A stretch of 64,000 nucleotides of DNA from contig JACXVD010000007.1 in the NCBI GenBank assembly GCA_014763545.1, positions 815 through 64,814 of the forward strand, in the 5' to 3' direction. The notes under the pieces were generated by a model, which saw only the letters and a program-made list of their open reading frames with translations, did no database searches and was not told where the DNA came from. This document shows positions 9,843-38,046 of the stretch, in pieces (within the stretch, counting starts at the first letter, position 1; the number at the start of each line of letters is the position of its first letter). Both the position numbers and the translations under genes were made by a program. This DNA is from Sphingomonadales bacterium (GTDB lineage Bacteria > Pseudomonadota > Alphaproteobacteria > Sphingomonadales > Sphingomonadaceae).

Positions 9843-11126
9843 ATGAGCTTCCCTTGGGCCAAGGAATATACGCCGCAGCACCCGCTGATGCGCTATCTCG
9901 ACGAAAAGCTGCCGGTGCCGCGTCTCGTCTACAATGCCGTCGGCGGCGGTTATCCGGTGCCGCGCAACCTTTCCTACATGTGGAATTTCGGTGTGCTCGC
10001 GGGCTTCTGCCTCGTGCTGCAGATCGTCACCGGCGTCATCCTGGCGATGCATTATTCGGCCGATTCGACGATCGCCTTCGCCAAGACCGAACACATCATG
10101 CGCGACGTCAACTGGGGCTGGCTGCTGCGCTATGCCCACGCCAACGGCGCGAGCTTCTTCTTCGTGGTGGTTTACCTCCACATCTTCCGCGGTTTCTTCT
10201 ACTCCTCGTACAAGGCCCCGCGTGAGATGATCTGGCTGCTCGGCGTGGTCATCTTCCTGCTGATGATGGCGACTGCCTTCATGGGCTACGTGCTGCCCTG
10301 GGGCCAGATGAGCTTCTGGGGTGCCAAGGTGATCACCGGCCTGTTCAGCGCGATCCCGCTGGTCGGCGAACCGCTGCAGATCTGGCTGCTCGGCGGCTAC
10401 GCGCCCGACGATGCGGCGCTCAACCGCTTCTTCTCGCTGCACTTCCTGCTGCCCTTCGTGATTGCGGCGGTGGTGATCCTGCACATCTGGGCGCTGCATA
10501 TCCCGGGTTCGTCGAACCCGACCGGCGTCGAGGTGAAGAGCGAAAGCGACACCGTGCCGTTCCACCCCTACTACACCGCCAAGGACGGTTACGGGCTGGG
10601 CGTGGCGCTGCTGATCTACTTCGCCTTCGTGTTCTTCCTGCCGAACTATCTCGGCCACCCGGACAATTACATCGAGGCGAACCCGCTCTCGACCCCGGCG
10701 CACATCGTCCCCGAATGGTATTTCTGGCCGTTCTACGCGATCCTGCGCAGCTTCACCGCCGACTTCCTGTCCATCCCGGCGAAGCTGATGGGCGTGCTGG
10801 CGATGTTCGCGGCGATCCTGGTGTGGTTCTTCCTGCCCTGGCTCGACAAGAGCCCGGTCCGCAGCGGCCACTACCGCCCGCTGTTCCGCAAGTTCTTCTG
10901 GTTCGGCCTGATCCCGACGATGGCGGTGCTGTTCTATTGCGGCGGCGCCCCGGCGGAGCAGCCCTATGTCATGATCGCCCAGCTCGCGACGGCTTATTAC
11001 TTCCTGCATTTCCTCGTGATCCTGCCGATCATCTCCTCGATCGAACGGCCGGAGCCGCTGCCCTACTCGATCACCGAGGCGGTGCTCGGCAAGGACGAGG
11101 CCGCGCAGCTGGAACCCGCCGAGTGA
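9843..11126 (+). CDS. petB: Cytochrome b
   Basis: Canonical cytochrome b sequence ([37 protein letters not shown]). Confidence 0.95.
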
Positions 11127-33225: not shown

Positions 33226-34209
33226 ATGAACAAGACCTCTGCCTCCGTCGAAAATGCACTCGAACGCGTCCTCGTGCTCGAAATGGTCCGCGTGACCGAA
33301 GCGGCTGCCATCGCCGCATCGGAACTTATCGGGCGCGGCGACGAGAAGGCGGCCGACCATGCCGCGGTCGAAGCGATGCGCAAGGCGTTCGACACGCTCT
33401 ATATCGACGGCACCGTGGTGATCGGCGAGGGCGAGCGCGACGAGGCGCCGATGCTCTATATCGGGGAGAAGGTCGGCGGCGCGCCGGGCCGCGGGCCCAA
33501 GATCGACATCGCGCTCGATCCGCTGGAAGGCACCACCATCACCGCCAAGGCCGGGCCCAATGCGCTGGCCGTGCTGGCGGCGGCGGAAGAGGGCTGCCTG
33601 CTCAACGCGCCCGACGTCTATATGGAAAAGCTGGCCGTGGGGCCGGGCTATCCCGAGGATATCATCAGCCTCGACAAGAGCGTGACCGAGAATGTCACCG
33701 CCGTGGCCGATGCCAAGGGGGTCGAGCCGTCCGACATCATCGTCTGCGTGCTCGACCGCCCGCGCCATGCCGAACTGATCGCCGAATTGCGCGACCTGGG
33801 CTGCGGCGTGGTGCTGATCGGCGATGGCGACGTGGCCGGGGTGATCGCGGTGACCGACCCGGAAACCACCATCGACATGTACATGGGTTCGGGCGGCGCG
33901 CCGGAAGGCGTGCTGGCGGCAGCCGCGCTGCGCTGCGTCGGCGGGCAGTTCAACGGCCGCCTGCTGTTCCGCAACGACGACGAACGCGCCCGCGCCCGCA
34001 AATGGGGGATCGAGGACCTCAACCGCATCTACAAGCTGGAAGATCTGGCGAAGGGCGATTGCATCTTCGCCGCCACCGGCGTGACCAGCGGATCGCTGCT
34101 CGAAGGGGTCAAGCGCCTGCGCGGCGGCAAGATGACCACCGAAAGCGTGGTGATGCGCGCATCCTCCGGCACGGTGCGCTGGATTCGGGGCGAGCATCAC
34201 ATCGACTGA
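33226..34209 (+). CDS. glpX: Class II fructose-1,6-bisphosphatase
   Basis: Full-length GlpX similarity (LDPLEGTT, DRPRH, GSGGAPEGV). Confidence 0.95.
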   Translation: MNKTSASVENALERVLVLEMVRVTEAAAIAASELIGRGDEKAADHAAVEAMRKAFDTLYIDGTVVIGEGERDEAPMLYIGEKVGGAPGRGPKIDIALDPLEGTTITAKAGPNALAVLAAAEEGCLLNAPDVYMEKLAVGPGYPEDIISLDKSVTENVTAVADAKGVEPSDIIVCVLDRPRHAELIAELRDLGCGVVLIGDGDVAGVIAVTDPETTIDMYMGSGGAPEGVLAAAALRCVGGQFNGRLLFRNDDERARARKWGIEDLNRIYKLEDLAKGDCIFAATGVTSGSLLEGVKRLRGGKMTTESVVMRASSGTVRWIRGEHHID

Positions 34210-34373: not shown

Positions 34374-34838
34374 TCATGGCCCGCCTCCCCTGCCGGGGCG
34401 CGGCGCAGCTGCGGGCGGGTGGCGGCGCAGCAGCCGCAAAAGCGAGGAATTGTCGGGCTTGCGGCGGATCGCACTCATGCGCCCACGATAGATCACCGGC
34501 TTGATGAAGCCCGCCTCGACCCGCGCGAGCAGCACCGCATCTGTCACCTTCCGGAAATCCTCGCGCGCCGCCGCGCAGGCCCCGCTGCCCGGCGGCGCCA
34601 GCACCCGGTCCCACGCCTGCGCAAAACTCTCCGCACCCGCCCGCGCGCGCAGGCGATAGGCGCTCGTCCGGCTCATCCCCACCCCGCGCGCCGCCGCCCC
34701 GACCGAGCCGGTGCAATAGAGCAGCGCCAGGAACCCGCACTGCCGCCCCTCGCTCCACCCGTCACGGCGGGCGCGCAAAGGCACCGGACGGAAAAACCCC
34801 GGGCGGCGGCGGATGCGGTGGGCAGGCGGCTTGCTCAT
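34374..34838 (-). CDS. Hypothetical protein with a probable helix-turn-helix
   Basis: GSVGAAARGVGMSRTSAYRLRAR resembles an HTH. Basic N-terminus. High GC, unlike the adjacent islet. Start at the internal Met MSKPPAH. Confidence 0.55.
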   Translation of the reverse strand: MSKPPAHRIRRRPGFFRPVPLRARRDGWSEGRQCGFLALLYCTGSVGAAARGVGMSRTSAYRLRARAGAESFAQAWDRVLAPPGSGACAAAREDFRKVTDAVLLARVEAGFIKPVIYRGRMSAIRRKPDNSSLLRLLRRHPPAAAPRPGRGGGP

Positions 34839-34922
34839 CGGCGAGCTTAAGCCATGGATGGGGGTGTGTAGGAAAGGGGGCTGGGAGATCCCCAAGAAAG
34901 GTGGAACGCGGTGGTCCCTCCG

Positions 34923-35624
34923 TCACACTTGAGGTTCGAGGCTCAATCCAAGTGCGCGCCCCACCAATGGAGTGGGATCGGCGCTCTCATTGCGCCAGTT
35001 CACCCGGCTGGGGTGAGTGGCTGTTACGACCGAAAGGCCATCGGCATTTCTGTGGGTGGTGCTCATCCAACGTCTTTTGTTGTGCTCAACGAATGTGTCA
35101 ATCTGCTCGGAAGCCTCGAGCCTTTCACGCACCCAGAGACCAGCGGTCTTACCGAAACACAAGATGGTGCGAATGTTCAGGCTCTCGATCACGGCAGCAT
35201 GGATAGGCCAACAGGCCGCAAGAAGATCAGACTTCTCCTGCGCTAGGTCATTTTCGCTTCGAGTCTGCACGAAGACCACGTTGCTGGTAGGAACCCGATG
35301 TGGATCCAGGCCGAGGCGACCAAGCATGTGAAGTATCTGGGGCTGAAGTCCCCAGGTACCGGGGGGCGCGCACTCCCAGGAACTGGTATATTCTGACCAG
35401 GGTGCATCCGCTCTTTTGAATTCGGCCAGTTTGCTCGCGATCGTGACGGTCGGGACGTCGGCGGGGATACCGCCAGGGTTCAGGCCAAGCACATAGAGGG
35501 GCGCCTTTTCGACGAACGCCTCTTTGCCAGAATAAAAGACCGAGCCGGAGCGTTTCAGTAAGTCGCTCGGCAAGCGATCCACTGCTGTTCTGATCGCTGA
35601 TGGAATTGCCTCATACGAAATCAT
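34923..35624 (-). CDS. UDG-superfamily DNA glycosylase-like protein (SMUG/MUG-like motifs), lower GC
   Basis: Motif 1 LYVLGLNPGG (nt 35469..35486), mid-region ILCFGKTAG, motif 2 ATHPS (nt 35007..35015). Strong SD (gggagggg) upstream of the ATG. Confidence 0.7.
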   Translation of the reverse strand: MISYEAIPSAIRTAVDRLPSDLLKRSGSVFYSGKEAFVEKAPLYVLGLNPGGIPADVPTVTIASKLAEFKRADAPWSEYTSSWECAPPGTWGLQPQILHMLGRLGLDPHRVPTSNVVFVQTRSENDLAQEKSDLLAACWPIHAAVIESLNIRTILCFGKTAGLWVRERLEASEQIDTFVEHNKRRWMSTTHRNADGLSVVTATHPSRVNWRNESADPTPLVGRALGLSLEPQV

Positions 35625-35823
35625 CTTCCCCTCCCATCCTGAACGAGCCCTCGGAACATCAATTGAACATACTGAAATGGCAAGAGATTTATTTTTTCAC
35701 TTAATGCCAGCTCAAGCCTGTGCCCCATCTTTTGCCTTTTCCCGGAGCGACAGGGGTGCTTTCCCCGAATGCCGCGATCTGGGTGCGGGCAGGAGAAAAC
35801 TTCGTCCTGAGAAGGTGACCCAG

Positions 35824-36858
35824 ATGGCATATGACGATGAAACCAACGAACGACTATGGCTTGCCGAATTCGGCCGCAGCATCACTCAAGACGCCCTTGA
35901 AATGGCGGATGGTTTGAAAACAGCCGAGATCGCCGGAATGGCTGAGTGTTACCTTGCGATACTGATCGATCAGCCGAGCAGATCGAGAGAAACCCTGACG
36001 CTAGCACAAGCTGGTGAAAGGCTTGCTACTAAGCTGATCACTCGCAAAGCGCAGGGAAGCCTCGTGACAGGTCTCCCTGCAATCGATGAGCACTCAGTCG
36101 CTTTGCGGGGCGGAAGTTTGATAGCCCTGGCCGGTTCTGATCGGGCAATTTCTAGTGCTCTCGCCACGACAATCGCAACCACTCTAGCACACACTTTGTG
36201 GCAGGATCGGATGAAGGATCGAATGCCGTCTGAGTCACGCGGCGCAGCAGTAGCCTATTTCAGCCTTAGACTATCTGCCGATTTCATTGCCCTGAGCACC
36301 CTCAAGCAGCTAACAAGTCAAAACGGCGAACACCTGATGACGCTCTCCACTCCAGAGGGACGGGCCGCTCTAAAAGCGGCTTGCCATAAGTTTTCAGCCT
36401 TGCCCCTCTTTCTAGAGGAAGACGCCGAGCTATCTCTGATGCAGATGTTGGCGCGCTCTAGGACGTTGATTAGGCGTCACGACACACGTTTAATTGTCGT
36501 GGATGACATCGGCTTGCTGCGAGAATGTCAGTGCGACACGTACCAGGCCAATTCTAAGTCGCGGAAGTTGCGGCAACTGAAGTCGATGGCAGAATTGAAC
36601 AATGTTGCGGTGATCGCCCTTTGTCCTCAGGGAGATTCAAATGACATGGACCAAGTGCCAGAGCTTCTTAAGTTCGCCGATGAGGTTTGGATTGCTGGCC
36701 CATCAAATCGGTCAGCACCCTTAAGGCCCAACTCGGGCCGTCTGTGGGAGCAAGAGATTGCCTTCACGGTGGTGGACCCGCTTTTCGGAGCGAGTGGTCG
36801 GACGAGCCTAAAAATCGACGTTGATATCGGATACGCGTGTGAGATGCCAAAAGAGTAG
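35824..36858 (+). CDS. DnaB-C-terminal/RecA-fold protein with degenerate Walker A (predicted pseudo-ATPase), lower GC
   Basis: Collinear with the DnaB C-domain. ALAGSDRAISS replaces A-R-P-S-M-GKT; FSLRL replaces FSLEM; Walker B is retained (LIVVDD); the LKSMAELNNVAVIALCPQ segment resembles LKALAKELNVPVVALSQ. Start at 35824, preceded by gagaagg. Confidence 0.65.
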   Translation: MAYDDETNERLWLAEFGRSITQDALEMADGLKTAEIAGMAECYLAILIDQPSRSRETLTLAQAGERLATKLITRKAQGSLVTGLPAIDEHSVALRGGSLIALAGSDRAISSALATTIATTLAHTLWQDRMKDRMPSESRGAAVAYFSLRLSADFIALSTLKQLTSQNGEHLMTLSTPEGRAALKAACHKFSALPLFLEEDAELSLMQMLARSRTLIRRHDTRLIVVDDIGLLRECQCDTYQANSKSRKLRQLKSMAELNNVAVIALCPQGDSNDMDQVPELLKFADEVWIAGPSNRSAPLRPNSGRLWEQEIAFTVVDPLFGASGRTSLKIDVDIGYACEMPKE

Positions 36859-37110
36859 GCAATAGAGGGTGGACTGCTCACTGTTGCCGCCAAACGCGGC
36901 TGCCCGCAACGGGCGACTAGGCGTCTCCTGCCTGAATAATTGACGCTCTTTGACATGACCAATACCCAGTCATCACCGGTCAGGCCCGGGGTGACGGGCA
37001 TTGCTCGGGGCCACCCCCAAACCCCCAACTTCCTCCGCCGCCCTGTTGCAATCCCGTGACCGGGCGCTATCGCCCGCGGGACGACGATTCCCTGCTTCGA
37101 GGATGGCCCG

Positions 37111-38046
37111 ATGAAGATCATGTCCGGCAATGCCAACCTGCCGCTCGCCCGTGCGATTGCCGGTTATCTCGAACTGCCGCTGACCGATGCCAGCGTGCGC
37201 CGCTTCGCGGATGAGGAAATCTTCGTCGAAATCCTCGAGAATGTGCGCGGCGAGGATGTCTTCCTCGTCCAGTCGACCAGCTATCCGGCGAACGACAATC
37301 TCATGGAATTGCTGATCTGCATCGATGCGCTCAAGCGCGCGTCGGCCAAGCGGATCACCGCGGTGGTGCCCTATTTCGGCTATGCCCGGCAGGACCGCAA
37401 GCCGGGGCCGCGCACGCCGATCTCGGCCAAGCTGGTGGCGAATTTGATCACCGAGGCGGGGGCCGACCGCGTGCTGTCGGTCGATCTCCACGCCGGGCAG
37501 ATCCAGGGCTTCTTCGACATCCCGACCGACAACCTCTTCGCCGCGCCGGTGATGGCCGCCGATATCCAGGCGCGTTACGGCGACCAGGATCTGATGGTCG
37601 TCAGCCCCGACGTCGGCGGCGTGGTGCGTGCCCGCGCGCTGGCCAAGCGGCTCGACAATGCGCCGCTGGCGATCGTCGATAAGCGCCGCGACCGCCCCGG
37701 CGAAAGCGAGGTGATGAACATCATCGGCGAGGTGAAGGGGCGCCACTGCATCCTGATCGACGACATCATCGATTCGGGCGGCACGCTGTGCAACGCGGCG
37801 CAGGCGCTGCTCGATGCCGGGGCCAGCTCGGTCGCGGCCTATATCACCCACGGCGTGCTGTCGGGCGGCGCGGTGGCGCGGGTCGACGGATCGGCGCTGA
37901 AGGAACTGGTGATCACCGACACGATCCTGCCGACCGACGCGGCCAAGGATTCGAGCAAGATCCGCATCCTCACCATCGCCCCGCTGATCGGCGAGGCGGT
38001 GCGCCGGATCGCCGACGAAAGCAGCGTCTCCAGCCTGTTCGACTGA
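37111..38046 (+). CDS. prs: Ribose-phosphate pyrophosphokinase
   Basis: Full-length Prs similarity ([23 protein letters not shown]). Confidence 0.95.

Follow-up and report, generated by a model that had tools for sequence, protein, structure and literature searches.

Several glycosylases with the uracil-DNA glycosylase (UDG) fold are described as antiphage effectors. Brig1, Brig2 and Brig3 are each encoded by a single gene and excise modified bases from phage DNA, and the best structural match of Brig1 is the family-4 UDG of S. tokodaii (PMC11078745; 10.1101/2025.10.29.685425; 10.64898/2026.02.25.707755). The subject of this text is a low-GC (guanine plus cytosine) islet located in a stretch of 64,000 nucleotides of a Sphingomonadales genome (assembly GCA_014763545.1, contig JACXVD010000007.1), from here on the window. 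The islet contains two divergent genes, one for a protein of the UDG superfamily and the other for a DnaB-like protein lacking catalytic residues. The initial annotation of the window had proposed that they form a two-gene defence or exclusion module. The pairing turned out not to be conserved, and the islet is an acquired fragment, probably with a stand-alone, mobile glycosylase as functional cargo and a dead DnaB as a passenger that is not its partner.

The glycosylase belongs to a clade that can be compared with three kinds of known proteins. The comparison with Brig1–3, made by description only, indicates that in both cases a stand-alone gene of the UDG superfamily, annotated as 'hypothetical', is distributed patchily across phyla, with a GC content below that of its surroundings and, in the clade at a minority of loci, mobile-element genes nearby. 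The differences are that most loci of the clade have no obvious defence neighbours and that some of its members are membrane-anchored. Concerning solved structures, the best matches of the glycosylase are family-4 UDGs, as for Brig1, and also UdgX (S. tokodaii 4zbx/4zby, T. maritima 1l9g, M. smegmatis UdgX). Family 4 has an Asn in motif 3 and a His in motif 2 (PMC5387724), both of which occur in the clade. However, motif 1 of the clade is GLNPGG and not GE(A/G/Q)PG, the identity to these family-4 and UdgX proteins is 14–18%, and the KRRIH loop of UdgX is missing. Nor, on informal inspection, was any sign seen in the clade of the four-Cys Fe-S signature that characterizes family 4. Finally, SMUG1, or family 3 (Geobacter metallireducens SMUG1 5h98, human SMUG1), shares with the clade the alpha/beta fold of UDGs (Foldseek E 2e-4 to 2e-3), a size of about 230–250 amino acids (aa) and a similar motif set, with Asn as the third residue of motif 1 (GMNPG in SMUG1, GLNPGG here) and His-Pro-Ser in motif 2 (THPSR here). 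In contrast, there is no detectable sequence similarity between SMUG1 and the clade, the template modelling (TM) scores are only 0.42–0.48, and the clade is sporadic and mobile.

Co-occurrence of the two genes

Relatives of the glycosylase were found in 162 of 185,579 species genomes (one genome per species), a number that is a lower bound because the scan used two peptide patterns. The best 80 of the 162 served as the sample; each locus was taken together with up to 10 kb of sequence on either side (less at many of them, where the contig ends), and all were searched by tblastn with the DnaB-like protein of the window and its eight nearest relatives. In 79 of the 80 loci, the DnaB-like neighbour was missing. 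The exception was a Novosphingobium metagenome-assembled genome (MAG; L016): here the DnaB-like gene, again divergent, encodes only 78 aa, which are homologous to the N-terminal end of P0122/P0123, two of the relatives, and of the window protein itself, and the glycosylase beside this stump is intact. No DnaB-like neighbour was present at homologues with 68% (L014), 62% (P0026/L017) or 60–62% (P0027/L008) identity to the window glycosylase. For the closest homologue (71%; L100), only 261 nucleotides (nt) of upstream sequence are available, and the neighbour would lie beyond the contig end.

In the proposed two-gene module, the pseudo-DnaB would sense or titrate a phage replication factor, for instance a helicase loader, while the glycosylase would attack phage DNA. 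The idea draws on the divergent arrangement around a common control region of about 200 bp with a conserved element, on the equally foreign composition of both genes, and on the preservation in the pseudo-DnaB of the linker and C-terminal domain, the surface bound by loaders in real DnaB. Nevertheless, the conserved element is present also at loci without a DnaB-like gene, the DnaB-like protein has no close relatives, and the recurrence of the divergent arrangement in the Novosphingobium lineage, which would speak for a module, is the very case in which the DnaB-like gene is reduced to a stump beside an intact glycosylase. A match to a known defence system was not obtained either: no family of PADLOC-DB 2.0.0 (2023), a release older than Brig1–3, was matched at E ≤ 0.1 by the glycosylase, by the DnaB-like protein or by the helix-turn-helix (HTH) protein encoded next to the islet. 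PHROGs and NCBIfam, applied to these three proteins, revealed no defence system either. With co-localisation in one of 80 loci, and the DnaB-like gene truncated there, we consider the two-gene module very improbable.

The conserved element of the control region is a two-box, non-coding sequence located about 90–96 nt 5′ of the glycosylase ATG in the window, in a betaproteobacterial MAG (L015, 2764–2791), in L016/L098 (L016, 2456–2483) and in L017 (9906–9933). At the closest homologue it occurs at equal distance and in inverted orientation (L100, 168–195). The carriers amount to four lineages, namely the window, one betaproteobacterium and two Novosphingobium lineages; a metagenome scan for the element returned only the Novosphingobium lineage already known, that of L016, in two contigs. 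The glycosylases of the window and of the betaproteobacterial MAG, which share the element, are 63% identical. In the window, the element is bracketed by a 10-nt imperfect inverted repeat (35679–35688/35727–35736). It was also considered whether the element could encode the N-terminal end of the DnaB-like protein, or a small open reading frame (ORF), and both ideas were rejected, as there is no start codon there in L015 and L017. Since the element is kept with the glycosylase across lineages, the gene appears to move with its own control region, and the element is probably the promoter or operator of the glycosylase.

The intergenic segment between both genes (35625–35823), initially described as AT-rich, has a GC content of 0.53. 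Its AT content does not exceed that of the islet in general, although one conserved box within it is A/T-rich. The window has one match (1.13 expected) to GTTC-N7-GTTC, the consensus of the alphaproteobacterial LexA box, and this match lies upstream of the glycosylase. Upstream of the 80 homologues, LexA boxes of three types were not conserved. Regulation by LexA was thus rejected as a family feature, and the box of the window is probably due to chance or specific to the lineage. A scan for sigma-70 promoters gave no match.

The glycosylase and its clade

The assignment of the protein to the UDG superfamily, already suggested in the initial annotation, was borne out. The match to Pfam UDG (PF03167) is borderline, with 25.4 bits against a cut-off of 24.3 (residues 97–215), and precomputed matches to the same family exist on some of the homologues. 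By sequence, the protein could not be placed in UDG families 1–6 or UdgX, and NCBIfam gave no match. No PDB chain was found at E ≤ 1 with the single sequence, nor any UDG at E ≤ 10 with the family profile, and the profile gave no meaningful alignment with an approximate sequence of E. coli MUG, an uninformative comparison. The AlphaFold model (predicted local distance difference test, pLDDT, 88.2; predicted TM score, pTM, 0.87) was in turn compared with the PDB by Foldseek, and all 50 listed matches belonged to the UDG superfamily. The best one was the family-4 UDG 4zbx (E 1e-5, TM 0.51/0.59), and UdgX and SMUG1 were also matched.

UDG families differ in catalytic residues, and the roles of the motif positions were taken from the literature (PMC5387724). 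In the window protein, G47-L-N49-P-G-G was taken as motif 1, S114-N115-V-V-F as motif 3 and T203-H204-P-S-R as motif 2, an assignment inferred from order, invariance and position after predicted strands. In the model, the predicted beta-strands E43-47, E113-115 and E198-202 each precede one of the motifs. An alignment of 37 diverse sequences of the clade (43–71% identity) contains 43 invariant columns; GLNPGG, SNVVF and THPSR vary little or not at all, and G47, L48, N49, P50, G51, G52, S114, N115, H204 and P205 are the same in 37/37. The window glycosylase keeps all 43 family-invariant residues in a full-length ORF. As all three catalytic motifs are present, it is predicted to be an active monofunctional glycosylase.

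The clade is extensive and its distribution is that of a mobile gene. At least 287 homologous clusters (90% identity clusters) were found at E ≤ 1e-3, nearly all of them unannotated. The species genomes with a relative come from Alpha-, Beta- and Gammaproteobacteria, Actinomycetota, Chloroflexota, Acidobacteriota, Bacteroidota and others. Across 73 loci, the GC content of the gene averages 5.5 points under that of its surroundings, with 41 loci below −3 and 4 above +3. Recombination genes occur near about 10 of the 80 loci (integrases in six, resolvases in four, and a transposase). Searches for relatives of the glycosylase in 50,697 phage records (tblastn) and in IMG/VR (two-pattern scan) found none, and plasmids gave five matches, all weak or partial.

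The neighbourhoods are varied. When the ORFs within 5 kb were clustered all-against-all, no family was found in more than nine of the 80 loci; a DUF2779/Cas4-like nuclease was near the glycosylase in eight loci, an IetA-like double-AAA ATPase in seven and WYL regulators in four. These families meet in a recurring cluster, present in seven to eight genomes of several genera including Halothiobacillus, which is formed by the glycosylase, the IetA-like two-AAA ATPase, two proteins of about 270–290 aa and the DUF2779/Cas4-like nuclease (loci L023, L025, L030, L045, L047, L048, L052, L055 and L073, around position 10000 of each), with WYL regulators near four of them. In several other genomes, the glycosylase gene has a housekeeping setting, such as holC-ndk, rplI-amn, pnp or topA-era.

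About 15% of the homologues (18–19 of the 120 best) are extended at the N-terminus by 80–100 aa, in which two transmembrane helices are predicted and a linker is basic and rich in Ser and Pro (P0030, P0037, P0060, P0077, P0078 and P0117 are among them). A membrane tether is unusual for a protein of the UDG fold.

The DnaB-like protein and the insertion of the islet

The second gene of the islet codes for a protein that contains part of the helical hairpin or linker and the RecA-like C-terminal domain of DnaB. It is collinear with alphaproteobacterial DnaB (PRK09165) and with phage G40P, its residues 12–267 corresponding to model positions 128–390, and it has the alphaproteobacterial insertion before the FSL motif. 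The fold was confirmed by Foldseek with a model of pLDDT 76: the best match was DnaB 7qxm (E 5e-15), and DnaB complexes with DciA, DnaC and lambda P were also matched. The sequence-level match is weak, with 77.8 bits for NCBIfam PRK09165 against an equivalog cut-off of 540 and a likewise weak DnaB-family match in PHROGs. Unlike DnaB, the protein has no N-terminal domain (there is no Pfam match to PF00772, and the protein begins near position 128 of the 497-position model PRK09165). At Walker A, GSDRAISS stands in place of GRPxMGKT, so that the Lys and Thr of GK[ST] are lost; FSLEMS has become FSLRLS, with the catalytic Glu replaced by Arg; and the later Q/R sensor motifs, SQLNR and IEQDAD, are degenerate. 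Of Walker B, the Asp is retained (VVDD). The loss of GK[ST] and of the catalytic Glu, pointed out in the initial annotation, is therefore correct. Translation from the start given in Table 1 is preceded, 5 nt upstream, by a Shine-Dalgarno-like GGTGA, and this start aligns with that of the Novosphingobium homologue; an alternative upstream ATG at 35677 would give a protein of 393 aa.

The protein is practically an orphan. An exhaustive search of 1.84 billion representatives yielded a nearest relative with 31% identity (E 2e-23) and only 13 proteins at E ≤ 1e-10, its own cluster counted, and a word-indexed homologue search returned the protein itself alone. A phage search gave no match, a plasmid search gave a single one, which was a true DnaB, and the window contains no other DnaB. 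The nearest relatives, P0122–P0124 (from a Sphingomicrobium MAG and metagenomes; 28–31% identity), share with the window protein an RRHD...IVVD block and the absence of the catalytic Glu (FSLK/FSLQ). They differ in that the Walker A lysine is kept (GKT in P0123 and P0124, GKA in P0122) and that P0123 has an N-terminal domain. In two different genomes, P0122 and P0123 are convergent, not to a glycosylase, but to a group of genes for TerL (Terminase_6C), DUF5681 and a ParB_N/N6_N4 methyltransferase, an arrangement (L011, 444–4948; L094, 8001–12796) that may be a conserved four-gene prophage-remnant module; P0122 also adjoins a transposase fragment. On these alignments, the window protein can be placed in a loose clade of dead DnaB paralogues with a prophage-remnant context.

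Such paralogues could have an independent function, either poisoning or titrating the host DnaB hexamer or its loader, in mobile-element exclusion or replication control, or acting as a non-catalytic scaffold in a terminase-linked module. The intact ORF with its ribosome-binding site despite extreme divergence, the recurrence of a Glu-less clade with two members in the same four-gene terminase arrangement, and a residue other than Glu at the catalytic position of at least 14 of the 149 best matches (by a crude regular expression) agree with this possibility. However, the islet has no terminase module, in the Novosphingobium lineage the gene has been cut short with no evident effect, and our literature search found no relevant work on inactive DnaB paralogues or on pseudo-DnaB proteins in defence. 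Moreover, a single sequence of the exact type exists, so that selection on the gene is not measurable. An independent function is, on balance, unlikely.

Concerning the islet itself, windows of 300 nt have GC contents of 0.51–0.59 at about 34.9–37.0 kb, against 0.67–0.75 on both sides, and the GC content at third codon positions (GC3) is 0.62 in the glycosylase gene and 0.56 in the DnaB-like gene, compared to 0.86 in glpX, 0.85 in the HTH gene and 0.89 in prs. The islet has only two long ORFs, divergent across the intergenic segment, and ORF, Pfam, PADLOC, PHROGs and NCBIfam analyses found in it neither an integrase nor a replication initiator, and no gene for a structural phage protein. In these respects the initial description of the segment holds. 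It had also placed the islet between glpX and prs, which is right for prs; on the other side, the native HTH gene stands between glpX and the islet.

In Citromicrobium bathyomarinum the gene order is glpX, HTH gene, prs, and the flanks of the window are 74–85% identical to it at the nucleotide level. The native sequence common to Citromicrobium stops near 34877 and is back by about 37046 (GTTGCAATC..GTGACCG), and the spacing between the HTH gene and prs is about 113 bp in Citromicrobium versus 2233 bp in the window. This empty site means that the islet, about 2.1 kb long, was inserted into a divergent promoter region and, together with the GC3 contrast, confirms the horizontal acquisition suggested earlier. 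The synteny of the three genes is not universal, as the HTH gene is elsewhere in two other relatives.

Signs of site-specific integration (flanking direct repeats, tRNA genes, Rfam families) were looked for at the islet and not found. The inverted pair of Table 1 is the only one of 18 nt with at most one mismatch and within 3 kb in the 64-kb window; its right arm lies inside the DnaB-like gene, at codons LKFADE. Identical islet proteins are encoded in the Sphingomonadales MAG GCA_014763825.1 and in three Logan assemblies. The contig of that MAG (JACXUR010000040.1; L001) stops 277 bp past the end of the DnaB-like gene, where the islet has its right edge, so that the assembly break coincides with the native/foreign junction.

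Table 1. Location of the islet, its genes and control elements, and the adjoining native genes, in positions of the window
Feature	Position	Strand	Remarks
glpX (fructose-1,6-bisphosphatase II), native, outside the islet	33226..34209	+	Pfam FBPase_glpX E 9e-136; 85% nt identity to Citromicrobium (L012)
Native HTH protein, 154 aa, left marker of the insertion site	34374..34838	-	GC 0.74, GC3 0.85
Inverted pair, left arm	34834..34851	.	Includes the HTH gene's start codon; partner at 36667-36684
Inserted low-GC islet	34880..37040 (borders approximate)	.	GC, GC3, comparison with Citromicrobium
Stand-alone UDG-superfamily protein, 233 aa, uncharacterised clade	34923..35624	-	Pfam UDG
GTTCAATTGATGTTC, GTTC-N7-GTTC	35654..35668	-	30 nt 5′ of the glycosylase ATG
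Two-box non-coding element	35687..35723	.	In glycosylase orientation CACAGGCTTGAG-N8-AAGTGAAAAAATAAAT; also written CAGGCTTGAG-N8-AAGTGAAAAA
DnaB-like pseudo-ATPase, 344 aa	35824..36858	+	Pfam DnaB_C 58.1 bits
prs (ribose-phosphate pyrophosphokinase), native, outside the islet	37111..38046	+	Pfam Pribosyltran_N E 3e-53; 85% nt identity to Citromicrobium

The native HTH protein has 260 homologues, among others in Citromicrobium, Tsuneonella, Erythrobacter, Qipengyuania and Blastomonas, and is conserved across Erythrobacteraceae without belonging to a Pfam family. It matches weakly PHROG 4044 'terminase small subunit' (E 2e-7). A relationship of this gene with the DUF5681 genes beside the DnaB paralogues was considered and rejected, as no similarity was found. 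Apart from the islet, a second low-GC stretch is located at positions 1–1000 of the window (0.52–0.55 in 500-nt windows) and overlaps an ORF (12–788, + strand).

Interpretation of the islet and role of the glycosylase

About 2.1 kb of foreign DNA was inserted into the divergent promoter region between the HTH gene and prs of a Sphingomonadales (Erythrobacteraceae-like) chromosome. According to the reading we regard as probable, the cargo would be a single-gene, self-contained glycosylase with its own control element, which would spread alone between distant bacteria. The enzyme would flip a non-standard base, pyrimidine or purine, out of the DNA and break the N-glycosidic bond, so as to leave an abasic site. 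The dead DnaB paralogue would come from the Glu-less clade located beside the terminase modules of sphingomonad prophage remnants, as a hitchhiker from a replication module of the donor.

It could be supposed, instead, that a mobile element has decayed and that the two genes are its remains, without any function. There is indeed no integrase, repeat or other element gene left, and the DnaB-like protein is devoid of catalytic residues, but both ORFs are uninterrupted and the glycosylase conserves 43 of 43 family-invariant residues at full length, so that this supposition is scarcely credible. The related suggestion of a decayed replication/repair cassette of a mobile element, made in the initial annotation, comes close to our reading of the DnaB-like gene and does not fit the glycosylase, which looks intact and independently mobile.

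Keeping the same anatomy of the islet, the glycosylase could be a base-excision-repair enzyme acquired as an accessory, a back-up of the SMUG1 type that would act on uracil, hypoxanthine, xanthine or oxidised pyrimidines. This is suggested by the UDG fold with SMUG1-like motifs (GLNPGG, HPS), the strong conservation across phyla, the housekeeping neighbourhoods in some genomes and the LexA-box-like sequence of the window. There is also a precedent for a sporadically distributed repair UDG in UdgX (PMC10776899). On the other hand, the LexA-like box is not conserved in the homologues, relatives were seen in few species genomes by the two-pattern scan (at least 162 of 185,579), the gene generally has a lower GC content than its flanks, with recombinases nearby, and one would not expect a repair enzyme to have membrane-anchored variants. 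Hints in the direction of defence are the lack of relatives in the phage collections searched, the company of the IetA-like ATPase and the Cas4-like nuclease in seven to eight genomes and of a WYL regulator in four, and the membrane-anchored forms. It seems reasonable to interpret that the target is more likely to be modified bases of incoming (phage) DNA than the lesions of routine repair, in view of these anchored variants and of a distribution that is accessory, mobile and low in GC. By analogy with Brig1–3, an antiviral role would thus be possible, if somewhat short of an even chance, and a SMUG1-like role in repair is about as likely.

Several points weigh against the acquired-fragment interpretation or its extension to defence. 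The divergent pair occurs in two lineages whose glycosylases share only 65% identity, so the association of both genes is not brand new. The ORF of the DnaB-like protein has stayed open over 344 codons despite about 30% identity to any relative, the chance of such an open frame at the local base composition being estimated at about 1e-6; this, along with the ribosome-binding site, indicates that it was selected as a protein at least until recently, and the gene may have a function of its own. Most glycosylase loci have no recognisable defence neighbours, and the identity of 42–71% across phyla, together with the housekeeping settings, makes repair fit as well as defence. Finally, the enzymology and phenotype of the clade are predictions from sequence, and the motif assignment has the indirect basis mentioned above.

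The main value of the analysis is a clean negative on the proposed two-gene defence system. The dead DnaB paralogues beside sphingomonad terminase modules are a minor curiosity without explanation. There remains a mobile clade within the UDG superfamily, well delimited and uncharacterised, that stands out by an unusual combination of motifs, a portable control element and membrane-anchored variants. It can be suggested, tentatively, that the clade defined by GLNPGG/SNVVF/THPSR might be a new family of stand-alone antiviral glycosylases, with membrane forms acting at DNA entry, and that the Glu-less DnaB paralogues might be non-catalytic replication decoys of mobile elements. As antiphage glycosylases of the UDG fold directed against modified bases are recent, the clade is a cheap and concrete candidate for a new substrate specificity.

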